A DNA stretch of 64,000 nt. It comes from Candidatus Binatia bacterium. Lineage in GTDB: Bacteria; Desulfobacterota; Binatia; UBA9968; CAXXLF01. Shown one piece after another: positions 1 to 64,000 of the stretch. The notes beneath the pieces are model-generated. The model had not been told where the DNA came from. It saw nothing but the letters and a program-made list of their open reading frames with translations, and searched no databases. The position numbers and the translations under genes are program-made. The stretch lies in contig CAXXLF010000001.1 of assembly GCA_963664015.2 (NCBI GenBank), positions 1,024,001-1,088,000 of the forward strand. The letters are read 5' to 3'. How positions within the stretch are numbered: the stretch's first letter is position 1; each line of letters starts with the position of its first letter.

Positions 1-224
1 TGAGTTTTGGATCCCTTCAAGAGACCCTCCAGTTGTAGAGCCTGCTCTTTGTCAGCGATACTCACCCATTCGGGTGCGAACTCCAGGGCCTGTTGAGCCA
101 AGACCTCCAGTTTTCGGCCGGCGGCCAGTCCACTTACCTTGAATAGGTCGGGAAAGCTCCGCACTAACTTGAGTGTGCTGACTCCGATGGAACCGGTAGA
201 ACCTAGAATTGAGATTGATTTCAT
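1..224 (-). CDS. dxr: 1-deoxy-D-xylulose-5-phosphate reductoisomerase, 5' part (runs off window)
   Basis: Manual translation from ATG at 224 gives MKSISILGSTGSIGVSTL..., the Dxr NADPH-binding N-terminus. ATGA overlap with the cdsA stop; conserved uppS-cdsA-dxr synteny. Confidence 0.93.
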   Translation of the reverse strand, partial: MKSISILGSTGSIGVSTLKLVRSFPDLFKVSGLAAGRKLEVLAQQALEFAPEWVSIADKEQALQLEGLLKGSKT

Positions 225-1018
225 GGATGGAGCACCTTTACGTAATAAGCTATAAACGCAGCTGGGAAAATGATGCTATCGATACGGTCCAACAATCCTC
301 CGTGGCCGGGCAATAATCTACCCGAATCCTTCACACCGAAAACCCGCTTGATCCACGACTCAAATAGGTCTCCAATTTGAGCCAAGAAACCCACTACACC
401 CGCAAGAAGGACCACCTCCAACCAGCTTAAAGCCGGAAGTAAAAACATTGCACCGAAAAACCCGGCGATCATGCTGGCCACCCCACCGCCTATCGCCCCC
501 TCCACGGTTTTTCCCGGACTGACCTCAGGATACAATTTTCTTTTGCCTAGCGCCATCCCTGTGAAATAAGCTGCCGTATCTCCCGATGCCGCAACCAGCA
601 GAATAAAAAAGACCCATTCGGTACCCTGAGAAGTTCCATATGTCACAACAATGTGCGGGAAAAGATATCCCAGATAAAAAACCCCCAATAGTGTCCAACC
701 CAAATGGCAATATCGTTGCTCCAACTCCCCGGCGGAGAAAAGGTAGCCGCAGAAACCGACAAGGACCACCGGTACCACGAATAACCCGGGTTCAGCCAAT
801 CCCGGCACGAGGATTGACATGGAAAGAACAACGCCCATAAAGATCCCCAACAACCGTTCCTTACGGTTTTTGGGAAAGGCCATACGAAAATACTCAGCTA
901 GAGCAACCGCAGTGGTTAAAAAAACGAGGACGGAGAAGAGATACCAGACGTGCCCAAAGGTGATGATGGCGACGAGGAGGGGAATCGCAACGAGAGCCGT
1001 GGCCACCCTAGCCCGCAT
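221..1018 (-). CDS. cdsA: Phosphatidate cytidylyltransferase
   Basis: Hydrophobic protein with SPGKTVEG and DLFESWIKRVFGVKDSGRLLPGHGGLLDRIDS motifs. Confidence 0.96.
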   Translation of the reverse strand: MRARVATALVAIPLLVAIITFGHVWYLFSVLVFLTTAVALAEYFRMAFPKNRKERLLGIFMGVVLSMSILVPGLAEPGLFVVPVVLVGFCGYLFSAGELEQRYCHLGWTLLGVFYLGYLFPHIVVTYGTSQGTEWVFFILLVAASGDTAAYFTGMALGKRKLYPEVSPGKTVEGAIGGGVASMIAGFFGAMFLLPALSWLEVVLLAGVVGFLAQIGDLFESWIKRVFGVKDSGRLLPGHGGLLDRIDSIIFPAAFIAYYVKVLHP

Positions 1019-1053
1019 GCAGTTTCCTCGCAGTGTAGGTGAGAGAGGGTCCC

Positions 1054-1791
1054 TCAGATTTCCTGCTCATCGGTCCTCCCAAATCTCCTCTTACGCCGTT
1101 GGAACTCGACCAATGCCTGGACATACTGGGCTTCTCGAAAGTCAGGCCAAAGAACTGGTGTCACATAAAGCTCTGTGTATGGGATCTGCCAGAGAAAAAA
1201 ATTACTGATCCGCATTTCTCCGCTGGTGCGAATAAGGAGATCGGGATTCGGAATAGATGCAGTCTCCGTATACGATGTGATCATGGCTTCGTCAATCTCC
1301 TCCGGATCGCAGTTCCCGTCTTTAACATTTCTAGCGATCTGGCGAACCATTTTGACAATATCGTGACGGCCACTATAGCTTAAGGCCAAATTCACCGTAA
1401 TTCGCTTATTGTCCTTGGTAACGTCAATGATGGTTTCCAAAACCGATCGAACGGATGACGGCAGTCGGTCTCTCTCCCCGATAGCCATAAGCCGTACCCC
1501 TTTACGCATCATCCTGGCCTTTTCGTCCCACAGGTAACGTTCCAACAACCCCATTAGTGCTCCCACTTCCTCTTTGGGGCGGTGCCAATTATCAGTTGAA
1601 AATGCGTACAAGGAAAGATAGGGGATACCGAGCTTACGGCTCATTTCAACGACGGATTTTACTGACGATCGGCCTCTCCGGTGACCTTCAATACGGCTTT
1701 TTCCCCTTAACCTAGCCCACCGCCCGTTGCCATCCATGATGATCGCGACGTGTTTGGGCAATCTACTTTTGTCTAGGCCCTGAAGATTCAT
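1054..1791 (-). CDS. uppS: Undecaprenyl diphosphate synthase
   Basis: HVAIIMDGNGRWA, YAFSTDNW, PDLLIRTSGEMRISNFFLWQ. Start placed at MNLQG (1791). Confidence 0.96.
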   Translation of the reverse strand: MNLQGLDKSRLPKHVAIIMDGNGRWARLRGKSRIEGHRRGRSSVKSVVEMSRKLGIPYLSLYAFSTDNWHRPKEEVGALMGLLERYLWDEKARMMRKGVRLMAIGERDRLPSSVRSVLETIIDVTKDNKRITVNLALSYSGRHDIVKMVRQIARNVKDGNCDPEEIDEAMITSYTETASIPNPDLLIRTSGEMRISNFFLWQIPYTELYVTPVLWPDFREAQYVQALVEFQRRKRRFGRTDEQEI

Positions 1792-1829
1792 GCTATGCAG
1801 GAATTGATGGAGAGGATTATGGAGAGAGA

Positions 1830-2387
1830 TCAAACCTCCATGATCTCGTCTGCTTTAGTCTTAAGCACTTTCTCGACCTGCCCGATAAACTCATCGGTCA
1901 ACTTTTGGATTCGATCTTGAGACTGCTTGACCTCATCTTCAGTAATTTCCTTGTTCTTTTGCAATTCTTTCAGCTTTTCAATGGCCACACGCCTGTGATT
2001 GCGCCCGGAGACGCGGAACTCTTCGGCCAGCTTCTTTACATGTTTGGCTAGCTCCCTGCGTCGTTCTTCGCTCAACTCGGGGATGGGTATCCGGATTACT
2101 TTACCATCATTGGAAGGTGTCAGGCCCAGGTCCGCTTTAAGGATGGCCTTTTCGATCTGGGCCATGGCTCCCTGATCGTACACTTGGATGACCAGCAAGC
2201 GCGCTTCGGGCACCGAAAGACTCCCCAGTTGATTCAGGGGGGTTTGGCTCCCGTAATAATCGACCATGATACCTTCCAAGAGACCTGTCGAAGCCCGGCT
2301 GGTTCGCACCGTAGCCAGGTCCTTTCGGAAAGCTAACAACGTCCGATCCATTTCGCTTTTTAATTCCGAGAAAAAGGACTCGTTCAT
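1830..2387 (-). CDS. frr: Ribosome recycling factor
   Basis: [41 protein letters not shown]. Start at 2387 overlaps the pyrH stop. Confidence 0.96.
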
Positions 2388-3115
2388 TTGTCCCCCATAG
2401 TAACAAGGGTGCCAATTTTTTCTCCGCAAATCACCTTTCGGATATTGCCCTTTTCCAGAATATTAAACACGACGATGGGAAGACGGTTGTCCATACAGAG
2501 GGAAACCGCTGTCGAATCCATTATCTTGAGTTCTTTGCTCAGCAGCTCCATATGAGACAGCTGACCGTACATTTTGGCTTCGCTGCTTTTCAGGGGATCG
2601 GCGTCATAGACGCCGTGAACCTTTGTGGCCTTGAGAATAACCTCCGCTCCCAATTCCATAGCACGAAGACTTGCGGTGGTATCGGTAGTGAAATAAGGAT
2701 TGCCCGTACCAGCCGCAAGGATCACTACCCGTCGTTTCTCCAAGTGGCGAACTGCTCTGCGGCGAATATAGGGTTCAGCAACTTGACGCATCTCGATGGC
2801 CGTCATAACGCGGGTGGATACGTCAGCTTTTTCTAAAGCATCCTGCAATGCAAGACTGTTGATTACGGTTGCCAGCATACCCATGTAGTCGGCGCTGGCA
2901 CGATCCATACCGCCCTCGCTGGCCTTGGATCCGCGCAGGATATTGCCCCCGCCCATAACCAGGGCCACCTCACAACCCAGTTCATGGACTTCCTTAACCT
3001 CTTCGCCGAAATCCTTGACCGTTTTACCGTCTATGCCGTGCTTCTGTGCCCCAGAGAGAACCTCACCCGTAACCTTTAAGATCACTCGCTTATACTTCAG
3101 GTTCCCACTGGCCAT
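2384..3115 (-). CDS. pyrH: Uridylate kinase
   Basis: [41 protein letters not shown]. Confidence 0.97.
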
Positions 3116-3132
3116 CCGAACTCCATTCGTCT

Positions 3133-3744
3133 CTAAGATTGCTTTGAGGCCCCTTCCCCAACATGGAATCGCACGAAGCGGCGCACCTGTATATTCTCGC
3201 CAATACGGCTGACGGCTTCTTTAATGAGGCCTCCCACATTGACATCCGAGTCTTTGATGAACTCCTGCTCCAAGAGGCAGACCTCTGAGTAAAAACGCTC
3301 CATCTTCCCGTCAACGATTTTCGCGAGCACTTTTTCCGGTTTTCCCGACTCGAGAGCCTGCTGGTGATAGATCTCTCGTTCTCTAGTCAACTCATCCTCA
3401 GGGACATCTTCTTTCCGGATATAACGCGGATTAGCCGCAGCGATTTGCATGGCAATATCCTTCAACAGGGCTTGGAATTCAGGAGTGCGTGCCACAAAAT
3501 CAGTCTCGCAATTGAGCTCTACCAGAACTCCGATCTTCCCTCCGCCATGGAGATAGGAACCCACCAGCCCTTCAGCCGCATCTCTCCCCTCTTTTTTGGC
3601 GGCCGAGGCCAACCCCTTTTGACGAAGATAATCAACGGCTTTCTCAAGGTCTCCTGCAGACTCCTGCAACGCCCTTTTGCAATCCATGATACCGGCGCCG
3701 GTCTTTACCCGTAGATCTCTCACATTTTCCGCTGTGATTTCCAT
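3133..3744 (-). CDS. tsf: Elongation factor Ts (short form)
   Basis: [27 protein letters not shown]. Confidence 0.97.
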
Positions 3745-3829
3745 CCCACTTAACCCCGTTGGAAAAATTTATTCGCTTCTACGCCTGTCCCACTAAGTCC
3801 TGAAAATAATTTTTCGAATCTATTCGAAG

Positions 3830-3851
3830 CCAACCTGAAGGCCCAGGTTGG
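3830..3851 (-). terminator. rpsB-tsf intercistronic hairpin (possible attenuator)
   Basis: CCAACCTG-aaggcc-CAGGTTGG 8-bp stem just downstream of the rpsB stop. Confidence 0.45.
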
Positions 3852-3876
3852 TTCTCCATCTCTTGCTGAAGAGGGT

Positions 3877-4674
3877 TTAATTTTCCCCGGGAGCAGCGTT
3901 TTCCGCAGCTACGAGCTCCATCGGGGGTTCCACGGTCGCTTCCGCAGCCTCGGCCTTTTCCTGAGCCTGTGCGGCCAATGTCTGTTCGTAAACGGCCTTC
4001 CCTTCAATTACCGCGTTCGCCACGGCCGAGCAGAAGAGTCGAATGGCCCGTATCGCATCGTCGTTACCAGGTACCTTATAATCAACAAGATCCGGATCGC
4101 AGTCTGTGTCAATAACGGCAACGACTGGGATTCCCAGTTTTCTAGCCTCACGAACGGCAATAGCTTCCTGTTTGGGATCGATGACAAATATTGCATCGGG
4201 CAATTTTTTGATATTTTTGATCCCGCCCAAGAAGCGTTCCAGTTTTTCCCTTTCCCGGCTCAAACCCAGCAACTCCTTCTTGGTAAGGGCCTCGGCAATC
4301 TTGGGGTCGGTTCCCATTTCGGTGATCTTTTTAAGGCGCTCGATACTTTTGCGCACCGTCTGAAAATTCGTCAGGGTGCCGCCCAACCATCGATGATAGA
4401 CGTAGTACATTCCACAGCGCCCAGCTTCTTCTTTGATGGTGTCCTGAGCTTGTTTTTTGGTTCCGACGAATAGGATTTGCCCTCCAGCGGCAACCAGATC
4501 CCGGACAAAGTCAACAACATCGGTGATCATCCTTACGGTCTGCTGAAGGTCCACGATATGGATGCCATTGCGGGCGCCGAAGATATAGGGTTTCATTTTC
4601 GGGTTCCAACGACTGGTCTGATGCCCGAAATGCACCCCTGCCTCAAGAAGCTGTTTCATAGAAATTTCTGTCAT
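3877..4674 (-). CDS. rpsB: 30S ribosomal protein S2
   Basis: [47 protein letters not shown]. Start placed at 4674. Confidence 0.97.
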
Positions 4675-4920
4675 AATAGTCCCTTTTATATACTCTTCAT
4701 CATCGAACTGGATGTTCTTTCCCTTCCCCACCGACGTCCCACTGGGCGGGATGGACAGTATTCAACACCCTATGCAAACAAAACACCTTTCCAAATCTAT
4801 CATTGGCCTACCGGATTCCGGCCAGAGCCGAAAAACCCTAGAGATGTTGCGCTTTTAGCAAATATTCAATGCTGCTGCAAGAGGCAAGGAGAGCTGAAAG
4901 GCTTGGGTGGTCGGAAATCG

Positions 4921-6246
4921 TCACTGACTCATAGAATCGAGGAACTCCTTGTTATCCTTGGTCCCACGCATCTTATCCAACAAAAACTCCATGGCCTCTA
5001 CCACGCTTAACTGAGACAACACCTTACGAAGTATCCAGATCCGATTGAGATCCTCCTGAGGAATGAGCAACTCTTCCTTCCTTGTGCCTGACTTATTAAT
5101 ATCGACGGCCGGGAACACGCGCTTGTCCATAAGGCGCCGATCCAAGAGGATCTCCATATTTCCCGTCCCTTTGAACTCTTCAAAGATAACCTCATCCATT
5201 CGGCTACCAGTGTCGATTAGAGCTGTGGCAATGATCGTGAGGCTTCCGCCATCTTCGATATTGCGTGCGGCACCGAAAAACTTCTTTGGTTTGTGCAGCG
5301 CATTGGAATCCACGCCGCCGGACAGTATCTTTCCGCTTGGCGGGACTACTGTGTTGTATGCCCGTGCCAGACGCGTAATACTGTCGAGCAAAATCACCAC
5401 ATCCTTTCCATGCTCCACCAACCGTTTGGCTTTCTCGATAACCATTTCTGCTACTTGGACATGTCGCGTTGCCGGCTCATCGAACGTGGAGCTGACGACC
5501 TCGCCTTCCACGGAGCGCTGCATATCGGTCACTTCCTCCGGCCGCTCATCAATCAGCAGCACGATCAAGACCACCTCTTCGTGATTGTGGGCGATAGCCT
5601 TGGCCACATTCTGCAGCATCATGGTTTTACCAGTCCGTGGGGCAGCTACGATCAGCCCTCTCTGCCCTTTCCCGATTGGGGTAAAGAGGTCAACAATTCG
5701 GGTAGTGAATCCATCCGGTTCGCATTCGAGTTTGAGGCGATCGTCAGGATAGAGGGGAAGCAGGTTGTCGAAGAGGATCTTATCCCGGGCCTTGTCAGGG
5801 TCCTCATAATTGATGGTTTCGACCTTGAGAAGGGCAAAGTACCGTTCGCCTTCCTTGGGGGGACGAATCTGTCCGGCAATAATGTCCCCCGTTCCCAGGC
5901 CAAAGCGTCTAATCTGGCTCGGTGAAACGTAGATGTCATCGGGACCAGGCAGGTAATTATAATCGGGAGCCCGGAGAAATCCGAAACCGTCCGGCAGGGT
6001 TTCCAGCACCCCTTCGCCACAGATAAATCCGTTCTTCTCGGTCTGGGCCTGAAGGATTGCAAAGATAAGCTCCTGGCGCCGCATACTGCCGGCCCCTTCT
6101 ACATTCAGGTTCTTGCCAAGCAGGGCCAGCTCACCGATCTTTTTCCCCTTCATTGTGGACAGATTCAGACCGTTCTGATCGGGCGTCTCCAGCTCAGATT
6201 GATTCTTTGCAGTTGCGATAGAAGCACCTCTCTTTGCAGTGCTCAA
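4921..6246 (-). CDS. rho: Transcription termination factor Rho
   Basis: [48 protein letters not shown]. Confidence 0.98.
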
Positions 6247-6585: not shown

Positions 6586-7686
6586 TCACCGATTAAGATC
6601 GCAGCGGTTTCCATTCATGGCATGCTGTCGTAATCCTTCTAGGAGCCGAACCATGTCCGGGAACCATGGGGCTTTCACGTCGAGCGGCTCTCCCGATCTC
6701 GGATGGGTGAATCGAAGCCTATCCGCATGGAGCGCTTGGCGGGAAAAATCAACGAGCCCTGAGACCCCCAACAGCCCTTTCCGTTCGGGGCCCACGCTTT
6801 TTCCGCCATATACCTTATCCTGAAGCACCGGGTAACCCTCATCCGCTAGATGAACTCTGATCTGATGGGTTCGCCCCGTGTGGGGCCTGACGCGCAACAA
6901 ACTGACCCAACCCTGCGGACCCAGCAGAGGGTCCAAGCAAAAAACTTGCTCCATTTCCCATTTGGTAATTGCGGGTCTTTTTCGTGCAAGGGAATAGAGG
7001 CTGGACATTTTCTTGCGGTCCGTCCGATGGCGCCCTATGGGGCGGTCAATAGTCCCCTTTTTCGGTTGCACCTTGCCCCACACAAACGCCACGTATTCTT
7101 TGGCAACGGACCGGTCCTTGAACTGGCCGGCGATCCGTTGAAAGGCCGTTTCGTTTTTTGCCACAACCATCACCCCCGACGTCTCTTTATCCAAACGATG
7201 CACAATCCCGGGCCTTCGCTCTCCCCCGATACCTTGTAGGTCCGGGCAATGATGGAGCAGCGCATTGACCAGCGTCCCGCGAGGGTTCCCCGCAGCTGGA
7301 TGAACCACCATACCGGGGGGTTTATTGACCAACAGCAGGTCCTCATCTTCAAAAAGGATGGGTAGAAAAAGGGGCTCGGCTACCAATCGTGTCTCTTGAG
7401 GAGAGACCCATTGGACCTCGATACAATCGCTCGATTTCAGCTTTACGCTCGATTTTACTAGCTGTCCATTGACCTTCACACATCCCCGGGTGATCAACTT
7501 TTGAACGGCCGATCGGCTCAGATCTACGGAGCCCGATTTCACATCTGCTTCCAACGGTGCCGCCGAGGATTCCTTGGATCTGTGAGTCGAAACCCCTTCC
7601 CCAAGGGAATCGAATAAGCGATGGGCTAAGAAAGCATCCAGACGCATGCCAGTGTGCTCATCTCCGACTGTGACACGATGGATCAT
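6586..7686 (-). CDS. rluD: RluA-family 23S rRNA pseudouridine synthase
   Basis: S4 domain, VNKPPGMVVHP, HRLDKETSG, TGRTHQIRVH, RQALHA. Confidence 0.9.
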   Translation of the reverse strand: MIHRVTVGDEHTGMRLDAFLAHRLFDSLGEGVSTHRSKESSAAPLEADVKSGSVDLSRSAVQKLITRGCVKVNGQLVKSSVKLKSSDCIEVQWVSPQETRLVAEPLFLPILFEDEDLLLVNKPPGMVVHPAAGNPRGTLVNALLHHCPDLQGIGGERRPGIVHRLDKETSGVMVVAKNETAFQRIAGQFKDRSVAKEYVAFVWGKVQPKKGTIDRPIGRHRTDRKKMSSLYSLARKRPAITKWEMEQVFCLDPLLGPQGWVSLLRVRPHTGRTHQIRVHLADEGYPVLQDKVYGGKSVGPERKGLLGVSGLVDFSRQALHADRLRFTHPRSGEPLDVKAPWFPDMVRLLEGLRQHAMNGNRCDLNR

Positions 7687-8642
7687 CAGTTGTTGAATTC
7701 GACGGTCTCGGCGACGGGGAGGTTCCGTAACACCGTTTGCGCCTCTTGGACATCATGATGCATCTGGTCGACCAGCAGATCGGTCGACGAAAACTTCTTT
7801 TGTTCCCGGATTCGCTTCACGAACGATAACCGCACAGGTTGATCGTACAAGTCTCCGTCGAAATCAAACAGAAAAGTCTCCAGGGTCCGCGGGCCCTCGC
7901 CAAAGGTCGGATTGTTCCCAAGGCTGGTTACGCTCGACCACCACTGCCCCTGGACCCGGAGAAAGGTTGCATAAATTCCGTCTGAGGGCACAACCTCGGC
8001 ACGTGTGGAAATATTGGCCGTCGGAAATCCGAGGGTTCTTCCCCGCTGATGGCCACCGACGACGCGACCGGAAACAAAATGATAACGTCCCAGGTAACGT
8101 TTCACCGAATGAACCTCCCCCTGCTCGATGAGCGCCCGAATGCGGGTGCTGCTGATACGTTGGCCCTGATCTAGGACAGGCTCCATAATCTTGACGTCAA
8201 ATCCACTCTGCGGCCCCCATCGGATCAGACTTTCCACATTCCCTCTTCGCCCACCCCCAAAACGGAACTCCTTCCCCACCCATATCCTGTGAATCTTAAG
8301 CCCTTCAACCAAGTACCGCTGGACAAAATCCTGAGCCTCGACTGCCGCAAACACCCTATTGAACTCCTGAATAACCACCGCATCCACGCCCATCGACTGA
8401 AGTAGCAGCATCTTGTCTTTGTGCCTCAAGATCAACTTGGGTGCCCGCTGGGGAGCCAACAGCTTGAGTGGATGCGGTTCAAAGGTCAGCACCACGGCAT
8501 CCCCGCCAACCTCTTTGGCGTCTCGGACCAGCCGCTTTAGCAGCGCTTGATGCCCCAAATGGATACCATCAAAGTTGCCCATAGTCAGGACCGGCTTTGA
8601 GACTGAGAGTCGTCGATCCAAAATATGACGAAAAATCTCCAT
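7686..8642 (-). CDS. ribF: Bifunctional riboflavin kinase/FAD synthetase
   Basis: GNFDGIHLGHQ, TFEPHP, ISSTRIR, GRTLGFPTAN. Confidence 0.96.
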   Translation of the reverse strand: MEIFRHILDRRLSVSKPVLTMGNFDGIHLGHQALLKRLVRDAKEVGGDAVVLTFEPHPLKLLAPQRAPKLILRHKDKMLLLQSMGVDAVVIQEFNRVFAAVEAQDFVQRYLVEGLKIHRIWVGKEFRFGGGRRGNVESLIRWGPQSGFDVKIMEPVLDQGQRISSTRIRALIEQGEVHSVKRYLGRYHFVSGRVVGGHQRGRTLGFPTANISTRAEVVPSDGIYATFLRVQGQWWSSVTSLGNNPTFGEGPRTLETFLFDFDGDLYDQPVRLSFVKRIREQKKFSSTDLLVDQMHHDVQEAQTVLRNLPVAETVEFNN

Positions 8643-56660: not shown

Positions 56661-57098
56661 TCATGACTGAGCGAGTTCCTCAAAGGACGGTTCCGGCAAA
56701 CCCTTCTCCCATGTGGGATCCCGAAGCTCGAGTCTGTTTCCACTGGGATCATAGAAGTAGAGTTCTCTTCCGGTAAAATATCCCTTGGCGCGGTAGACAA
56801 GCTCCACGACGGAGACTTTCTTTTCCTGAAAGACTTTACAAGCCTGCACCAGTGTTTCCGAACTCACCGTGAAGGAATGATGAACCAGATCATTTTTTTC
56901 GAGGGCCTTCCTACTGCGTTCCTTTTCGGCGCATAGCAGGATATTGTGATCCCCGACATTGAAGCACGCCATGCCCGAATCGCCTAACCGCCCCACAAGC
57001 TTGAGACCAAGCAGGTCGCCGTAAAACTCTATCGACTCTTCCAGATCGTTCACAGGAATGGACCAGTGAGTAACCCCTTCAATTTTCAACAATCCCAT
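56661..57098 (-). CDS. VOC/glyoxalase family protein
   Basis: THWSIPVNDLEES..FY..LLGL, HHSF, YFYDPSGNRLE. Confidence 0.87.
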   Translation of the reverse strand: MGLLKIEGVTHWSIPVNDLEESIEFYGDLLGLKLVGRLGDSGMACFNVGDHNILLCAEKERSRKALEKNDLVHHSFTVSSETLVQACKVFQEKKVSVVELVYRAKGYFTGRELYFYDPSGNRLELRDPTWEKGLPEPSFEELAQS

Positions 57099-57881
57099 AG
57101 TAGCCTCCCTTAAAACTTTCAAACCTTTTTTCCCAATCTTTACCGGCGGCACCACTGTCACGGAATCAATCAGACACGCTCTTAGTAGATTAGCAGGGAC
57201 GAGTCAAGGCACACAAATGCGGAGAGGATCGGTTTAATTGTTGCGCCCCACACGAGGCTGCCGCTTCTAGAATAATTCGTCGCGCGCCTTAACACAATTC
57301 AGCCCATTCCGTGCTCTACTATTTTAACTTTTCAAAGAGAAATCGCTGCCCTGCCCGGCGGAAGGGTCGAGAGTCAAGGGCATAGGAGGTTGGCGAGTCC
57401 GCATCCACGGGTTCGCCCCGACACCCCTGACTGTTCGAGCTTTGGCTGGAACTCAAGAATACTGCTGAACGCTATCCAACACGCGTAATGGCCCCCGCGC
57501 CATGGTGAAGCCTGGGCAGTATTGCTGATGCAAACCGCAGGACAAGACGCCATTCGGGTAATCGAATCCGAAATACTGAGGGAGAATAATCTGGACATTA
57601 ATCCCGGGGCTTCTTAGCCACAACGACGAGATCGACTGTCGAGGTGAGATGATTTCTGAGCCAACAGCTTATCGACCGAACACGTAGGCTTGAGATTTGC
57701 TTTCAATCCTTGTTGGCAGAGCATTGCCATGTCAACAGCTACAGAGGTGCTTCTCCGGGTAAACGTAGCACCCAGGAGGAATGGTGCACATCAGCCCATT
57801 CCCACTGGGATCTGGACTGTTATCGACTCCTTATCAGGAGGTCCCTTGACACGGCCCATCCCCAGCGATAAAGGAGCGGGT

Positions 57882-58274
57882 ATGACATCCAACAAAAACT
57901 CACCCGTTATAAACATAATAAATGGAGCTTCCATCGGTGGAATATTATTGGTCTTAATGAGTGCATATTCGATATGGCATATATATAGGTCGGGTCTTTC
58001 AGATATTGCTGACCTTACATATCCAATTGTCGTGGTCGTTGCTGTGGCTGGTTTAGTCGTTGGTCTATTTTTAAGAAACAGAGCAGCCGCTACAATGTTG
58101 CTCCTCTATTACGTAGGGACTAATATTTACAACCTAAGTGCTGGATTTTTACAGCCTCATCAGCTTGCAATTCCAGTGATATTCGCCGTCTGGATTTTCA
58201 GTGGCGTGGCAGCAACATATCGTTATCACAATACGATGCCACAGAACGATCTCAGCAATAAAGAGGCGTCATGA
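57882..58274 (+). CDS. Hypothetical 4-TM membrane protein
   Basis: AAGGAG RBS; four hydrophobic segments; AT-rich. Confidence 0.6.
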   Translation: MTSNKNSPVINIINGASIGGILLVLMSAYSIWHIYRSGLSDIADLTYPIVVVVAVAGLVVGLFLRNRAAATMLLLYYVGTNIYNLSAGFLQPHQLAIPVIFAVWIFSGVAATYRYHNTMPQNDLSNKEAS

Positions 58275-58508
58275 TTTCCAACCAACCAAAAACCCGTGGA
58301 TGCCCCCTCCGGCCAGGGGCACCCCATATCCGTGAATTTGATATCTCACAGCTATACAGAGAGAACGCCCTGGAACGATAAGGTGCTTCGCAAATCAGAT
58401 TCGCGCGTCGAAGCGTAGGGCTGAGAAGATAGAGAGTATGCTGCCAGAGAGGGAGGAACGGAATAGGAAGTTAAAAGATCAGATTAAGGCTGTCGATCAG
58501 CTTCAGCA
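58230..58508 (+). repeat. ~280-bp direct repeat, copy 1 (contains frameshifted copy of the ORF at 63655)
   Basis: AATACGATGCCACAGAACGATCTCAGC...GATCAGCTTCAGCA matches 63614-63893 with scattered substitutions and a 1-bp deletion. Confidence 0.92.
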
Positions 58509-58574
58509 TCAAAGGTTAGCACGGCGGTGAGAGGATCCGCTACACCCTCTTGAACAGCGGTATCTGTCAGCGGC

Positions 58575-58836
58575 ATTTGGGGGCAACTCCATTTCCATGC
58601 TCCCCTGTTGCCCCCAAATCTGCCCCTATATGGGGGCATCTTTAGTTGGACGACATGGGATCATGCCGGACACTACATCAGGTATTTCGACGGTATTACA
58701 ATGGCTTGTTGGACTTTAGCGGACGCTACTGGATAGATAAATGGTGGAGGCGGGGGGAACTACATTACGCTCCTAACTCATTGATATAAATGATACTGCT
58801 GCCGTGAAATTACGTTGTTGCCCCCAAAGCTGCCCC
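58575..58836. mobile_element. att junction: tmRNA/tRNA-Ala-type 3' end core with arm repeats and IHF site
   Basis: Core 58742-58759 is the reverse complement of TTCCCCCCGCCTCCACCA. TGTTGCCCCCAAA.CTGCCCC at 58606 and 58816; inverted copy at 58575-58587; TATCAATGAGTTA (IHF consensus) at 58774-58786. Confidence 0.8.
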
Positions 58837-59103
58837 CACAGTGTCGCTCCTGGTCATAATTTTTGGCTCCTTGATCCGCTCTGAACTGCCCACATCCCTC
58901 GCCCGTTCGTCCTCAAGGACTCCCCAGGAAAGATCCCCCTAAATGCGTAGGACTCAATTAAAGCGTCGTTTAATTGCGTTCTGGGATGAAATTATGGTCT
59001 GCTAAGTCGGGTTGGCAAATTTAATTCTGAAAAAGCAATGAATCTTAAATGAAGCTGTTATTGCCCAGGTATATTTTGTTTCCAAATCCGATAGAACTTT
59101 TTC

Positions 59104-59682
59104 TTATATAAACTCTTTTCCGCCAGTTTGTCCAATCGCCCCATTTAATAAACGCGTCAGAGTCTGATTCTCATAAGTTATGCCTTTGATTATCTCTTTC
59201 CCTCGTGAAGAAAGCCGCCGATACCCCCAAACACAACGGCGTTTCGTTTCATCCCAGCCCTCGCGTTGGTAATACAGAGGCATATTGACATCAAAATAGG
59301 AAATACTATCAGCGTCCTTGAGCAGGTCGGAACGAGGGTCGCCGCCCACTTCATGAAGCGTTACAAGACGGCAAGCTTCTTCAGCAATGGGTTTGGCCAC
59401 TTGGCAATCATCCAAAATTTCCCGCAGAATCTTCGCCCCGTTTTGGGCATGCGCGGCTTTGAAGACATCATAATCGTCAAAATCGGAGCGGCGCGCCTTT
59501 CGCGCTTCCACTGCTCTGTCAATATCATGAGCGAGCGCGGCAATCTGCATGGCTGGATCAGCTGTGGGATCGAACTTAAAAAGCCATTCAAGCGTGTTAT
59601 CAGCATGGACAGGATCTTCTGGAACCTTGGAAGCGGCAATGACTTCCCGGATTTTCCGTTTGGCGCATTCGATCCTATCCAT
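59104..59682 (-). CDS. HD-superfamily protein (DUF4202-like)
   Basis: H..(EDPVHA)..ALAHDIDR..AAHA..LHE..DADSISYF. Start MDRIE overlaps the IPCT/DIPPS stop. Confidence 0.78.
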   Translation of the reverse strand: MDRIECAKRKIREVIAASKVPEDPVHADNTLEWLFKFDPTADPAMQIAALAHDIDRAVEARKARRSDFDDYDVFKAAHAQNGAKILREILDDCQVAKPIAEEACRLVTLHEVGGDPRSDLLKDADSISYFDVNMPLYYQREGWDETKRRCVWGYRRLSSRGKEIIKGITYENQTLTRLLNGAIGQTGGKEFI

Positions 59683-60997
59683 GATCTCGGCAGACGATGA
59701 GACGGCGTATGGTTTCAAGGTTCATCATCACGGCGATCACCAGTAGCGTCCAAAAAGGTAGATGGAGCACAGCGCCGAGAAATATGATGAAGACACGAAT
59801 GTCCCGGCCCAGTCGGAGCCCTTTGCCTTGGCGAATCTGGCGGCCCATCAGATGGTCGTATTTGTCCGCCGTGTAACTCAACAAAAAAGACCCAATGATC
59901 GCCAGGAAACCGACAAACAGGACAAGGCCTTCTGTCCTATCCGCGTAAGCGTGCCAGGTGAGGCCAAAAAGAAGGAATGCGTCAGAATAGCGGTCCAGTA
60001 CGGCATCCAACCATTTCCCGTAGTCGCTGCTTTGGAACTTGAGTCGTGCCACTTCGCCATCGCAGCCGTCGATCACCGAGGCGAATTGCGCGAGAACCCC
60101 ACCCAGGAAAAGAGCCAAATAACTGCCAAGGGAGAGCAGAACGGCAGCCAGTATTGAAAACAGGACAGAAAATAGAGATATCTGATTTGGGGTGATGGAA
60201 TAATTTACCAGTCGGCGGGAAATTCTTATGGACAAAGGCCGGTTTAAAAAACGGGCAATCGGACCGTCGTGGGTCTTCCCCCGTAGGTTGGCCAAAAGGG
60301 CGTTTTCCGCGCGTCGGAAAGCTTCCGGATCATCCACATCGATCCAGAACTGACCGTTTATGTCGACCGCATTGACCAGCCCATGGGTGGCCAGCTCCCG
60401 CACGGCTCCAGAAAGGGAAGTATCGCTGGTTTCTTCCGCACACCGTTCCAAGGTCGTGAAAATGGCGGGAGTGCATACGAAAAGACCGGTATCAAATCCA
60501 TTATATTCCTTTATGTTTTTACCGATATCCCGGATCTTCCCCCCTTCGGTCTTTACCCGAGTGACATCCTCCAAGTCGACCAGGGGGTTGCTCCTGTTTC
60601 CATCCACGCCGAGGGCAATTCCCCCATCGGCTAATGAAAACTCGATCAACTTTCGGACAATAGACGGATCAAAGAGGTGATCCGCCATCAGCAACAAAAA
60701 GGGTTCGTACAGGCAGTCCCGCGCCTTGAGTACCGAAAGGCCGTTTTCTTTTTCCCAATCCTCGTTAACGATGGTGGTGATGCCAATACCGAGACGTTCA
60801 GCCAAGCGATCGAGAAAAACGCGAACGCCCTCTCCCTGGTAACCGATGACAACAAAAAAGTCATCCGCTCCAGCCTCAATGGCACAGCGGATGATTCGTT
60901 CGATTAAAGGGATGCCAAAAAGTGGAATGAGGGGCTTGCTATCGCCCCTACTCCGAAGACGATGGCCTTTGCCTGCGGCAATAATTAGACACTTCAT
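59675..60997 (-). CDS. Bifunctional inositol-1-phosphate cytidylyltransferase / CDP-alcohol phosphatidyltransferase (IPCT/DIPPS)
   Basis: N-terminal NTP-transferase (IIAAGKGHRL..SKPL, ENGLS, MADH, FDTGLF, WIDVD) fused to CDP-OH transferase (TPNQIS, DGCDGEVAR..YG.WLD.VLDR); adjacent to ino1. Confidence 0.88.
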   Translation of the reverse strand: MKCLIIAAGKGHRLRSRGDSKPLIPLFGIPLIERIIRCAIEAGADDFFVVIGYQGEGVRVFLDRLAERLGIGITTIVNEDWEKENGLSVLKARDCLYEPFLLLMADHLFDPSIVRKLIEFSLADGGIALGVDGNRSNPLVDLEDVTRVKTEGGKIRDIGKNIKEYNGFDTGLFVCTPAIFTTLERCAEETSDTSLSGAVRELATHGLVNAVDINGQFWIDVDDPEAFRRAENALLANLRGKTHDGPIARFLNRPLSIRISRRLVNYSITPNQISLFSVLFSILAAVLLSLGSYLALFLGGVLAQFASVIDGCDGEVARLKFQSSDYGKWLDAVLDRYSDAFLLFGLTWHAYADRTEGLVLFVGFLAIIGSFLLSYTADKYDHLMGRQIRQGKGLRLGRDIRVFIIFLGAVLHLPFWTLLVIAVMMNLETIRRLIVCRDHG

Positions 60998-61022
60998 ATA
61001 GGCTTCAACCTTGGTTTAGACT

Positions 61023-62192
61023 TTATGATACCAAATCTGGAGACGCCCCCAGCCCAAGTTCCTCCTTTATGCGCAGGACGCCCTTGACCTGAACAAGCTG
61101 GGTTCCTTGTATGAAACGCTCAACCATTTGAAATGCCTCATCATCAGCGACTTGGTGGAGGGGATGTTTACAGAAATAAGCTGAAGGGGCAAAAAGGACT
61201 CCGCCTTGTCCCCGGTTCAACGCCAGTTTTGTACAACGTATGGAGTCGATGACGACTCCGGCGGAATTAGGCGAATCCTCTACGGAAAGCCGAAGCTCGA
61301 TATTCATGGGTATATCGCCGAAGAGTTTACCTTCCATCCGAAGAAAACAGATTTTATTATCTTTTTGCCAAGGCACATAATCACTGGGGCCAATATGGAT
61401 ATTGTCGTCGGCCAGCCGCTTGGCGGTGACGGCCTGAACGGCTTCCGTTTTGGATTTTTTCTTCGAGGCCAGGCGATGTCGGTTGAGCATATTGAGAAAA
61501 TCGGTGTTACCGCCGGTATTGAGTTGGTAGGTCCGTTCCAGCTTGACACCACGCTTCTTAAACAAGTCGGTCAGTACGCGGTGGGTAATGGTCGCCCCAA
61601 CCTGTGACTTGATGTCATCACCGACAATGGGAACATTCTTTTCCTCAAAACGCTTGGCCCATACGGGGTCGCTGGCGATAAATACCGGTATATTGTTGAT
61701 AAATGCAACATTGGCTTCCAACGCGCAATCCACATAAAATCGGGTAGCTTCTTCTGAGCCTACCGGTAGATAATTGATGAGAATTTCCGCACCCGAATCT
61801 TTGAGAGCTTGGACGACTTCTTCTTTAGTAGGCTCCGGTTTGTCGGCAAGAACAAAAACGTTTTTATCATCATAATCGTTCATATGATCCGGAAAACCGT
61901 CCAGAACTTTACCCATCCTTACAAGGATTTCGGAGGGTGGAACGTCGGGATAGAAAACCGTAGTACAATTTGGTTTGGAAAAAATTGCTTGATGGACGTC
62001 GACCCCAACCTTTCGTTCATCGATATCAAAGGCTGCAACAACCTGGATATCCTCTGGTTTGTACCCCCCAATTTCATGATGCATCAGGCCGATTATATCT
62101 TGAGGATCTTTATCCCTGTAATAGTAGATTCCTTGAATCAGGGAACTGGAACAGTTTCCAACACCAATCAAGGCAATTTTTATTTTTTCCAT
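61023..62192 (-). CDS. ino1: Myo-inositol-1-phosphate synthase
   Basis: IGVGNCSSSLIQG, NYLPVGSE, GDDIKSQVGAT, YQLNTGGNTDFLNM, SKKKSKT, VEDSPNSAG. Confidence 0.95.
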   Translation of the reverse strand: MEKIKIALIGVGNCSSSLIQGIYYYRDKDPQDIIGLMHHEIGGYKPEDIQVVAAFDIDERKVGVDVHQAIFSKPNCTTVFYPDVPPSEILVRMGKVLDGFPDHMNDYDDKNVFVLADKPEPTKEEVVQALKDSGAEILINYLPVGSEEATRFYVDCALEANVAFINNIPVFIASDPVWAKRFEEKNVPIVGDDIKSQVGATITHRVLTDLFKKRGVKLERTYQLNTGGNTDFLNMLNRHRLASKKKSKTEAVQAVTAKRLADDNIHIGPSDYVPWQKDNKICFLRMEGKLFGDIPMNIELRLSVEDSPNSAGVVIDSIRCTKLALNRGQGGVLFAPSAYFCKHPLHQVADDEAFQMVERFIQGTQLVQVKGVLRIKEELGLGASPDLVS

Positions 62193-62445
62193 ATATTAAC
62201 TCCTTTAGGCAAAAATGCCTTTAAATTCCTCCAGATAATGAGAAAACAGGTGCCTTGTAAAGAGAATTATGAACCGACTGCAACATCAAAGACCACGGTT
62301 CATTAAACCTAATGTCCTAGGTATTTATGGAGAGGGAACAAAAGCCCTCACCTATGACGCATTTCTTGAAGGGGTTTTGAGTATAGCAAGTCCAATTGAA
62401 TTATGAAAGCTCTCTTTGACTGCCCCAAGGGCTCGATCCTAGTTG

Positions 62446-63557
62446 CTATTTCCGATTACCAAATTCGGTCTGAATCGATAACTTACGCACTACCGCATTG
62501 GCGATCTCCTCAACGTCCGGTCGCTCTGTCTGCCGCGGTTCGGCCAGGCCCTGGATGATCTCACCCTGCCGCCTGCTTCCGACCTCTCCGTAGCTGTAGA
62601 ACGTCGTCAAGACACCCTCGTGCCCAAGATTCTGGCTCCAAGCTTTGAATTGCTCTGGCGTCCGGCAGACCATCTCACCGAGTCGGACAAGCGTCCTCCG
62701 CAGGCTGTGCGGATTAAAGTACGGCAGCTTGGCAGCGTGGAATGCCTCGCGAAAGATCCTGCGGATGGATGCTGCACTGCTCCAATGCTCACGTTTTAGG
62801 CCAGCGGCCTCGAACTGCTTGGCCGCGTTTAGGACCATGTCTGTTGCCGGGAAAATCGGATCATCAGTCCCCCAAAGCTTGACTTCCCGCAGGTAGTTCA
62901 CCCAGTCCACGACTATCTTGCTAATTTCTTCCCCGACGGTAAAGAAGAAGGTGGTGAAGGTCTTGCTGAATTTGGTTTTCACTTCACGGGCGTCCTGGTA
63001 GACGATTCCGGCCACCAAATCAACGTGCTTCAACTTCATTGATGCGATGGCGCTGTCCCGTGCCCCAGTAAGGAGGGTGAAAGCGACAAGGGCACGATTT
63101 CGCTGCTGGATCTCAGAGTCGTTCGGCATCTTCGCAATGACGTGCTTAATCTGCTCCATGGTCGGGAAGTGTTTTTCGCTACGTGCCGTCGCAATCCGCG
63201 AGTCTTTGTCGGATAGGTTGAAATAGTCCGCGTCGGAATACCCGAAACGGGACCTGTAGCCCGGTTGGCCACCAGCCATTGAAAGAACCGTTTGAGGTGA
63301 GCGAGCGTGGCATGAAGCGTCGCTTTGCTGAGCTTCTCACCAGTCACCATGCTTTGTTGATCCGCCAAGCGCTTCTTGAAGGCAATGGCCTGCTCGAAGT
63401 GAAACGCTTTGAAATCGCGGTACCCGGCATCGGCCTCAAACCGCGAGAGCGCTTTGGCAACAGCATCTACCGTTGGTTCGCTGTGGCGCTTGGGTTCCTT
63501 CAGGTACGTGAAATATTGTCGCTTGACCCGTTCGTTACCGGCATTGTGCTCTGCCAT
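62446..63557 (-). pseudogene. Tyrosine recombinase/integrase, split by a single frameshift near 63270
   Basis: N-part MAEHNAGNERVKRQYF..RFFQWL joins C-part GQPGYRSR..TGARDSA..KTK..HSLRR..LGH..SYG, with R-K-H-R-H-Y all present. Confidence 0.85.
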
Positions 63558-63613
63558 GGCTTGCTGCCTCCTGTCTCAAGTCACTATTCACGGAGGGTTA
63601 AGTCCTCTCTCCT

Positions 63614-63893
63614 AATACGATGCCACAGAACGATCTCAGCAATAAAGAGGCGTCATGATTTCCAACCAACCAAAAACCCGTGGATGGCCCTACCGGCCAG
63701 GAGCACCCCATATCCGTGGATTCGACACCTCACAGCTATACAGAGAGGACGCCCTGGAACGGATAAGGTACCTCGCAAATCAGGTTCGCGCGTCGCAGCG
63801 TAGGGTTGAGAAGATAGAGAGTATGCTGCCTGAGAGGGAGAAACGGAATAGGAAGTTAAAAGAACAGATTAAGGCTGTCGATCAGCTTCAGCA
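63614..63893 (+). repeat. ~280-bp direct repeat, copy 2
   Basis: Matches 58230-58508. Confidence 0.92.
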
Positions 63894-63948
63894 ACAAACT
63901 GGGTCCATAAGAACGTCACCAAGAATTAACACTTCTTTCTTCCCGTGA
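63655..63948 (+). CDS. Hypothetical coiled-coil protein inside the repeat
   Basis: 97-aa ORF, GAGG RBS; heptad-like C-terminal half. Confidence 0.45.
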   Translation: MISNQPKTRGWPYRPGAPHIRGFDTSQLYREDALERIRYLANQVRASQRRVEKIESMLPEREKRNRKLKEQIKAVDQLQQQTGSIRTSPRINTSFFP

Positions 63949-64000
63949 CTCCAGTGCTTGAGTTGGCGTTCGCACTGGAGAGCGTCGATTTTGGACTGAT
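63888..64000 (-). CDS. GIY-YIG nuclease (YazA/YhbQ-like), 3' end only
   Basis: Manual translation QSKIDALQCERQLKHWSHGKKEVLILGD matches the A..RE.QLK.WS..KK..LI motif. Confidence 0.7.
   Translation of the reverse strand, partial: QSKIDALQCERQLKHWSHGKKEVLILGDVLMDPVCC

Follow-up and report, generated by a model that had tools for sequence, protein, structure and literature searches.

Which enzyme removes the last phosphate from the product of a small inositol gene cluster is the question raised by a locus in the genome of a Candidatus Binatia bacterium. The DNA analysed, referred to below as the window, is a stretch of 64,000 nucleotides of contig CAXXLF010000001.1 (positions 1,024,001 to 1,088,000 of the forward strand). 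Near its right end lie the genes of a myo-inositol-1-phosphate synthase (Ino1), of a fusion protein resembling CTP:inositol-1-phosphate cytidylyltransferase (IPCT) joined to di-myo-inositol-phosphate-phosphate (DIPP) synthase (DIPPS), and of an HD-domain protein of the DUF4202 family. An earlier reading made from the sequence only had taken the three genes for a mobile cassette producing DIPP, the precursor of the solute di-myo-inositol phosphate (DIP), and the HD protein for its missing phosphatase. The balance of the evidence tilts slightly towards a DIP-type solute pathway with the DUF4202 HD protein as the terminal phosphatase.

In the proposed pathway, Ino1 would convert glucose-6-phosphate to L-myo-inositol-1-phosphate, and the N-terminal domain of the fusion would use CTP to turn inositol-1-phosphate into CDP-inositol. 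The membrane-embedded C-terminal domain would then pass the phospho-inositol group on to another soluble alcohol that carries a phosphate; with inositol-1-phosphate, the most likely acceptor, DIPP would result. The translationally coupled HD protein, presumably a cytoplasmic metal-dependent phosphohydrolase, would strip the remaining phosphate and release the final solute, filling the place that inositol monophosphatase (IMPase) or HAD hydrolases take in related clusters. The cassette would be a self-contained three-gene pathway for a soluble DIP-type inositol phosphodiester, carried on an island at the 3' end of the tmRNA gene.

The three packed, co-oriented genes were found in the ORF list on the minus strand at 59104-62192, as the sequence-only reading had described them (Table 1). 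The distance between ino1 and the fusion gene is 25 nt. The longest ORF of the HD gene spans 59104-59718 with a TTG start at 59718; the gene was taken to begin at the ATG at 59682-59680, within ATGGATAG, because 17 of the 18 aligned HD homologues start at that Met. The TAG stop of the fusion is situated at 59677-59675, and the claimed overlap between the two genes was thereby seen to be 8 nt. The AT-richer character ascribed to the block was real and modest, with 49.6% GC in the cassette vs 53.5% in window positions 1-57000. Ino1 matched PF01658 with 125.6 bits and TIGR03450 with 440.6 bits over positions 4-361, i.e. over its full length and under the equivalog cut-off of 638. All three genes matched known families, which supports the pathway assignment made from homology.

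Promoter-like and terminator-like sites within 58500-63700 were in no excess, numbering 6 vs 4.7 and 5 vs 6.1 in shuffled sequences, respectively. Contigs from RNA libraries of four studies span all three genes with a likeness of 85-99%, and the junction between HD and DIPPS was bridged in three of the four runs. These contigs give weak support because DNA can be present in such libraries, and they prove neither transcription nor a single transcript; differences in contig depth between the genes are unusable for ranking expression.

The membership of the HD protein in DUF4202 was established by an HMM search in which PF13875 reached 68.3 bits (cut-off 35.1) and was covered from position 20 to 178 of its 183, and PF01966 reached 23.9 bits; the DUF4202 model also matched all 82 aligned homologues. 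The ligand pattern H, HD, H, HE, D read earlier from the sequence corresponds to H26, H52-D53, H78, H110-E111 and D125. These residues are invariant in 19 close homologues, and among 82 diverse ones H26 and H52 remain invariant while the other five are conserved in at least 90%. The basic residues R56, K75 and R156, likewise conserved in at least 90% of the 82 homologues, would suit an anionic substrate.

The structure prediction that had been suggested as a check yielded a confident HD phosphohydrolase fold with conserved ligands (AlphaFold model, pLDDT 96.0, pTM 0.91). The closest structural neighbour was 2pq7 (Z 13.0, rmsd 3.5, 150 aligned residues), followed by a small alarmone hydrolase (Z 11.2) and YpgQ (Z 11.0). 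Cyclic-nucleotide phosphodiesterases reached Z values of about 9-10 and PhnZ 9.2 over 113 of the 192 residues; MIOX was not among the 50 structural matches listed. The fold and the H...HD...H...H...D metal pattern are shared with the HD phosphohydrolases 2pq7, small alarmone hydrolases, YpgQ and YqeK. In contrast, the sequence identity to them is 13-19%, and their substrates are nucleotides. A profile built from 19 HD homologues retrieved nothing significant from the PDB sequences (best E 0.3). Foldseek against the PDB returned weak rows of the HD superfamily only (best E 0.017), the neighbours named above coming from the wider VIA structure search, and the ESM Atlas search returned only DUF4202/HD clusters. 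A Pfam scan of the 82 homologues at E up to 0.1 assigned no specific HD subfamily, HD_3 appearing in 2 of the 82. The predicted complex of the fusion with the HD protein scored 0.00 in both runs, which included no controls and are uninformative either way.

The neighbourhood survey proposed with the earlier reading revealed a strong association of the HD gene with IPCT/DIPPS. The HD protein had 1600 matches at E <= 0.001, and the best 120 of them were 68-95% identical and distributed over several phyla, the taxa being those named in the sequence records. A scan of one genome per species gave 249 HD relatives, of which the best 80 loci were used. In 71 loci, more than 700 nt were available upstream of HD. 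A co-oriented DIPPS domain immediately precedes the HD gene in 69 of them, L044 and L056 being the exceptions, and the aligned DIPPS and HD ends overlapped in 59 of these 69. The linked loci belong to Nitrospinota, Desulfobacterota-type bacteria, Acidobacteriota, Gammaproteobacteria, Chloroflexota, Dadabacteria, Zetaproteobacteria, Binatia and Bacteroidetes. The identities of HD and DIPPS to the window proteins co-vary (r = 0.94, 61 loci). Upstream of the fusion, ino1 was present in 39 of the 56 loci with more than 3300 nt of upstream sequence. When the ORFs of the 80 loci were clustered, only the HD, fusion and ino1 families were widely shared (80, 75 and 44 loci, respectively).

The linkage extends to gene fusions. 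A search of 1.84 billion representatives with the HD protein resulted in 745 matches at E <= 0.001, and 18 of the longer ones were scanned against Pfam. Three of these proteins (P0129, P0154, P0251) combine an NTP-transferase, a CDP-OH transferase and DUF4202, and a fourth (P0126) a CDP-OH transferase and DUF4202. The cytidylyltransferase is cytoplasmic and precedes six helices; an HD domain attached behind the sixth would therefore lie in the cytoplasm, on the side of the active site.

The absence of an IMPase gene, on which the idea of a missing phosphatase had been founded, holds for the island; elsewhere in the genome, two IMPase-family genes were found. The word missing was therefore too strong, as IMPase-type enzymes are already accepted DIPP phosphatases. 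In PMC8397731, IMP is labelled as the DIPP phosphatase. A tblastn search of the 80 HD loci with the two IMPase-family proteins of the genome gave no matches. A sample of 201 genomes of the host's phylum contained 28 with an IPCT/DIPPS match at E <= 1e-20 and 11 in which DUF4202 exceeded its cut-off; in 8 of these 11, DUF4202 directly followed IPCT/DIPPS.

The neighbourhoods of 13 IPCT/DIPPS loci without HD and of three DUF4202 loci without IPCT/DIPPS were inspected. Among the 13 HD-less loci, a HAD domain was fused to the enzyme in two (L086, L087) and a HAD gene was adjacent in three (L093, L095, L097), two of which also contain ino1. The fusion in L086 joins NTP-transferase, CDP-OH transferase and HAD in 689 aa (3162-5231, minus strand); directly downstream of it lies an IMPase-family gene (2326-3165, minus strand), and then a GAF + HD_5 protein (372-2318, minus strand). 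In L087, the fusion of IPCT, transferase and HAD (1-1764, minus strand) adjoins a full-length tyrosine recombinase (2136-3104, minus strand), which may be an island gene or a housekeeping Xer. No hydrolase was found in the other eight loci (L085, L088-L092, L094, L096), of which three (L088, L089, L094) are truncated at a contig end. A 184-aa ORF after IPCT/DIPPS in L092 was considered as a hidden HD relative and rejected (hhalign probability 0.2). With regard to the suggested check for replacement of IMPase, the 80 HD loci thus gave no IMPase match, and HAD or IMPase genes stand beside some HD-less relatives. Since three unrelated hydrolase folds occur at one position, a shared phosphatase role is the simplest explanation, and the case is one of non-orthologous displacement of IMPase or HAD rather than of a filled hole in a known pathway. 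The place of the HD protein in the pathway, as first read from the gene order, is thus supported by synteny, fusions, fold and the HAD and IMPase genes at the same position.

Further partners of DUF4202 were also noticed. The domain occurs fused to PfkB, GT4, GT2, NUDIX, alpha/beta hydrolase and nucleotide-cyclase domains; the fusions to GT4 and GT2 are reminiscent of the pairing of a synthase with a phosphatase seen for other compatible solutes. A PfkB sugar kinase gene follows the HD gene in L028, L031 (5861-6727), L032, L035 and L036, which belong to Desulfobacteraceae, Candidatus Desulfatibia and Deltaproteobacteria, and PfkB is fused to DUF4202 in P0121 and P0125. We assume that a PfkB kinase beside the HD gene may be an inositol kinase for salvage. 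In L098 (894-2368) and L099 (739-2261), a gene for a distant DUF4202 member (about 34% identical to the HD protein of the window) directly follows lgt, and the ORFs overlap in L098. Lgt, the prolipoprotein diacylglyceryl transferase, releases glycerol-1-phosphate, and a role as polyol-phosphate phosphatase would fit these members of the family.

The fusion matched NF041135, the model of bifunctional IPCT/DIPPS, end to end (291.5 bits over 1-435), the Archaeoglobus fulgidus IPCT/DIPPS (PDB 4mnd) with 187 bits over 1-426, and the IPCT structure 2xme with 83.5 bits. Within the signature DxxDGxxAR...GxxxDxxxD of the CDP-alcohol phosphotransferases, the residues D310, D313, G314, A317, R318, G327, D331 and D335 were invariant in 40 sequences. 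The same was determined for S374, Y375, R398 and R401, also in the HAD-coupled sequences. R398/R401 align with R152/R155 and S374/Y375 with S132/Y133 of the Mycobacterium tuberculosis phosphatidylinositol phosphate (PIP) synthase, of which R155 and S132 are assigned to inositol-phosphate binding (PMC4634129). According to Clarke et al. (PMC4634129), two Arg and one Ser hold the phosphate of inositol phosphate, and six helices go with soluble acceptors whereas lipid acceptors go with extra helices. The C-terminal domain of the fusion aligns end to end with the six-helix AF2299, and the protein stops 2 residues past the helix-six region; the three or four extra C-terminal transmembrane helices of lipid-acceptor enzymes were not found in it. 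Among solved structures, AF2299 (PDB 4o6m) is the one closest to the transferase domain and has six helices and the same RDxR motif. Its extramembrane domain, which resembles a cytidylyltransferase, is shorter than that of the fusion, and its crystals contained CDP-glycerol (PMC4634129). These sequence comparisons favour an acceptor which is soluble and phosphorylated, and the product would therefore still carry a phosphate.

Several points weigh against a DIP-type pathway that ends with the HD protein. Gene content, homology, fold, synteny, fusions and the island with its foreign origin are observed; each catalytic step, the acceptor, the product and its function as a stress solute are inferred, for the phosphomonoesterase role from context. 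An extra phosphatase is not strictly required, because the genome has its two IMPase-family genes. Around the closest IPCT/DIPPS of the phylum sample (L085 5001-7826, 62% identity), 5 kb of flanking sequence contain neither HD nor HAD nor ino1; it is followed by an MFS transporter whose best family is the L-lactate transporter (182.6 bits, under the cut-off). The ino1 gene was not adjacent in 17 of 56 loci, mostly of Acidobacteriota and Dadabacteria. The DUF4202 family is not limited to inositol, given its other fusion partners and the distant members by lgt. The fusion also missed the NF041135 equivalog cut-off of 580, as expected, because the model was built for Thermococcales and the fusion is a distant bacterial homologue. 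The product could be DIPP/DIP or another inositol phosphodiester. Part of these points would agree with an explanation in which the HD protein is the phosphatase of a pathway with other chemistry: the transferase product might be, e.g., of the glycero-phospho-inositol type, or HD might act on inositol-1-phosphate or on separately made PIP. The C-terminal domain scored 170.9 bits over 201 residues with AF2299 vs 94 bits with AfDIPPS (4mnd); judged by these scores, the transferase is far nearer to AF2299 than to the proven DIPP synthase, and the donor in the AF2299 crystal was CDP-glycerol (PMC4634129). A second CDP-alcohol phosphotransferase of 217 aa lies 3' of the HD gene in five Nitrospinota/Nitrospina/Nitrospinales loci (Table 1). 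Its best NCBIfam match is PIP synthase (33.5 bits vs the cut-off of 170), which makes a lipid link conceivable, and the bacterial PIP phosphatase long escaped identification (PMC4634129). However, this enzyme is absent from the island in the window and from most loci, the N-terminal part of the fusion matches solved IPCT domains over the full length, and the gene most often found beside it is ino1. Given the IPCT-like domain and that neighbour, CDP-inositol plus inositol-1-phosphate is the simplest pairing, and we regard a pathway of other chemistry as rather unlikely.

The transfer of CDP-inositol's phospho-inositol to diacylglycerol or ceramide, with an HD protein that is lipid-related or outside the pathway, would yield an inositol lipid. 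Such a route, consisting of MIPS, NTP-transferase, CDP-alcohol transferase and HAD, was proposed by Heaver et al. for inositol-sphingolipid producers (PMC9246714), and in L096, a distant relative from the phylum sample, the gene adjoins that of an LPG-synthase-like membrane protein. In the present fusion, however, the transferase ends after helix six, without the helices tied to lipid acceptors, and the two Arg residues linked to the phosphate of inositol phosphate never vary in the 40 sequences; according to Clarke et al. (PMC4634129), lipids are not processed by AF2299 and AfDIPPS, the solved enzymes nearest to it. A lipid acceptor would leave no phosphate on the product, and the coupled or fused HD, HAD and IMPase would then go unexplained, which makes an inositol lipid very unlikely. 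The HD protein might also be no phosphomonoesterase at all. It could instead be a phosphodiesterase or nucleotidase that turns over DIP, CDP-inositol or CMP, or an oxygenase which, like MIOX and PhnZ, has a di-iron site and which modifies the inositol group. Its ligand set, H/HD/H/H(E)/D, fits the two-metal sites common to HD phosphodiesterases and HD di-iron oxygenases, a further point against the phosphatase assignment, and both phosphodiesterases and PhnZ were among the structural matches. MIOX itself is an HD-fold enzyme acting on myo-inositol. The top matches are nevertheless phosphohydrolases (Z 11-13), PhnZ covering 113 of 192 residues; a degradative enzyme would be futile when translationally coupled and fused to the synthase, and relatives hold HAD and IMPase phosphatases at the same position. 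A function other than that of a phosphomonoesterase is thus considered improbable.

The cassette had been placed between an att site and an integrase. The att site was confirmed and more sharply defined, as an exact copy of the tmRNA 3' end. The tmRNA gene, lying just beyond the right end of the window, opens on the plus strand with the same 18 nt as 58742-58759. This sequence has one match in the window, with 0 mismatches, whereas 0.08 matches were expected with up to 3 mismatches. The gene after tmRNA presumably encodes SmpB, as named from reading its sequence. The integrase is present and is split into two frames which overlap at 63036-63279; it is either a frameshifted pseudogene or the result of an assembly error. 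The locus has the parts of a tmRNA-targeted island, namely the tmRNA gene and the copy of its 3' end as the two boundaries and a tyrosine integrase between them; an intact integrase, as expected in a still-mobile island, was not found. Barring an assembly error, the island may no longer move, because the integrase is divided over two frames. The tmRNA gene, ssrA, is a common integration target, and known ssrA islands likewise consist of an integrase-bearing insert at the ssrA 3' end with a short repeat at the far side. Unlike them, the present island comprises only 5.3 kb, has one metabolic operon as its cargo and carries a split integrase.

Other sequences at the island ends are listed in Table 1. 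The right copy of a 286-nt direct repeat consists of the 5' part of the 97-aa ORF and 41 nt upstream. The repeat was considered as the att site and rejected, since its left copy lies outside the island and the copy of the tmRNA 3' end was found instead; the left copy is read as the end of an older, related tandem element at the tmRNA site. Three exact copies of GTTGCCCCCAA surround the att copy at 58577-58587 (minus strand), 58607-58617 (plus strand) and 58817-58827 (plus strand), the last of them within the non-coding island end. With up to 1 mismatch, GTTGCCCCCAA occurs 6 times in the window vs 1.89 expected, a number reached in none of 100 shuffles, and its copies may be binding sites of the recombinase or of an accessory protein. 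The Rfam scan of window positions 57000-64000 gave no match. To the left of 58230, genes for a 194-aa membrane ORF, a glyoxalase-fold protein, an alpha/beta hydrolase, an NMT1-like protein and a Rieske oxygenase are found, with 55-63% GC.

Table 1. Features of the cassette and its island in window coordinates, with related genes and proteins of other loci.
Feature	Coordinates	Strand	Basis or remark
ino1, myo-inositol-1-phosphate (inositol-3-phosphate) synthase, 389 aa	61023-62192	-	PF01658, TIGR03450
IPCT/DIPPS-type fusion, 440 aa (CTP:inositol-1-phosphate cytidylyltransferase-like N-domain and six-helix CDP-alcohol phosphotransferase C-domain)	59675-60997	-	NTP_transf_3 + CDP-OH_P_transf
DUF4202 HD-domain protein, 192 aa, proposed terminal phosphatase	59104-59682	-	PF13875, PF01966
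Island, 5.3 kb	58760-64101		between tmRNA 3' end and its 18-nt copy
tmRNA gene	window-equivalent 64102-64452 (L084 2102-2452)	-	just beyond right end of window; ARAGORN, Rfam 208.9 bits
Distal att repeat, exact 18-nt copy of tmRNA 3' end	58742-58759		same orientation, 0 mismatches
Tyrosine integrase, split	62446-63557	-	N-terminal SAM-like part 63036-63557 (PF02899), catalytic part 62446-63279 (PF00589)
Small ORF, 97 aa, tmRNA-proximal island end	63655-63948	+	ORF list
286-nt direct repeat, right copy, inside island	63614-63899		93-94% identical to 58230-58515
286-nt direct repeat, left copy, outside island	58230-58515		1-nt deletion breaks small ORF
Non-coding distal island end, 344 nt, 3' of HD gene	58760-59103		no ORF >=60 aa, no Rfam match
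Second CDP-alcohol phosphotransferase in other loci	L006 7479-8138; L008 3016-3660; L009 6702-7364; L010 6590-7243; L011 6590-7243		
Proteins with DUF4202 and a GT4, GT2, NUDIX, alpha/beta hydrolase or cyclase domain			P0136, P0269, P0177, P0229, P0175, P0245

The mobility ascribed to the cassette is supported for this genome by the island structure and by the foreign origin of its DNA. Comparison of the stretch 59018-62308 with a contig of Candidatus Nitromaritima (Nitrospinota) gave 92.6% identity over 3296 nt, and comparison with contigs labelled Nitrospina or Nitrospinales gave 83-88%. The nucleotide similarity to the Nitrospinota cassette ends at the cassette edges, distally at 59018. To the right of the island, the host PanC had a best non-self match of 76%, and its named matches (64-69%) were Binatia and "Deltaproteobacteria" metagenome-assembled genomes (MAGs); no Nitrospinota names were found among the 120 PanC matches listed. 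These similarities, with PanC as the one marker of the host side, point to a recent cross-phylum transfer of a foreign cassette, which was probably acquired from a Nitrospina-like donor. Relatives of this integrase were found near the cassette in none of the other 80 loci, and a tRNA or tmRNA within about 6 kb of it in 5 of the 33 loci scanned; mobility is therefore established for this genome only. In L083, a Bacteroidetes MAG, a tmRNA gene (7353-7717, minus strand) lies about 800 nt from the cassette end, convergent with the HD gene.

A wider proposal can be built on these results, to which we assign somewhat less than an even chance. According to it, DUF4202 proteins would be unrecognised HD-fold polyol-phosphate phosphatases which complete DIP-like synthesis in cold deep-marine bacteria. 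The three genes would form a pressure or salt module moving between phyla, here from a Nitrospina-like donor to a Binatia-like host by means of a tmRNA-targeting integrase, and one and the same step would have been solved three times independently, by IMPase, HAD and HD. If true, this would give the first function to an uncharacterised Pfam family, and unrelated hydrolases would have been recruited to the last step of inositol-phosphodiester synthesis on at least three occasions. A solute thought to be typical of hot environments would extend to widespread non-thermophilic bacteria of sea and sediment, with a bearing on the adaptation of deep-sea microbes to pressure and salt. For biotechnology, the cassette would offer a compact, portable three-gene route to DIP-type solutes. 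Full-text literature searches found no paper that names DUF4202 and none that links IPCT to an HD domain, though subscription journals and supplements may hold one. The searches also gave no paper joining di-myo-inositol with Nitrospina, or the truncated term Nitrospin- with inositol-1-phosphate and osmo-.

Among known systems, the DIP pathway of (hyper)thermophiles, the details of which reportedly come from Rodrigues 2007 and Rodionov 2007, consists of IPS, IPCT/DIPPS (AF0263) and an IMPase-type phosphatase. The present cassette has ino1 and a fusion with the same domain order, alignable over 1-426, and a final dephosphorylation is likewise needed. In contrast, a DUF4202 HD protein replaces IMPase in the cluster, the transferase domain is only distantly like that of AfDIPPS (94 bits), and the carriers of the cassette are marine, sediment and seep MAGs, not known thermophiles. 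Another parallel is found in hadal and deep-sediment Thaumarchaeota, which are non-thermophiles of cold, high-pressure habitats with a merged IPCT/DIPPS on a small island regarded as horizontally acquired (PMC7265257, PMC8397731). The neighbour in hadal Thaumarchaeota is an extra IMPase copy (PMC7265257), whereas here it is the HD protein; the present host is a bacterium, on whose island an integrase and a defined att site at the tmRNA gene were recognised.

The cluster of Bacteroides vulgatus and Prevotella has the same four functions, i.e. MIPS, NTP-transferase, CDP-alcohol transferase and a hydrolase, the latter being fused to the transferase in one species (PMC9246714). It differs in that the hydrolase is a HAD protein, the cytidylyltransferase and the transferase are separate, and the product is a lipid, in a pathway that is itself still a proposal (PMC9246714). 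HAD-coupled and HAD-fused versions were found also in the host's phylum, and the parallel suggests that the HAD of the gut Bacteroides/Prevotella cluster may be a phosphatase and not a lipid synthase.

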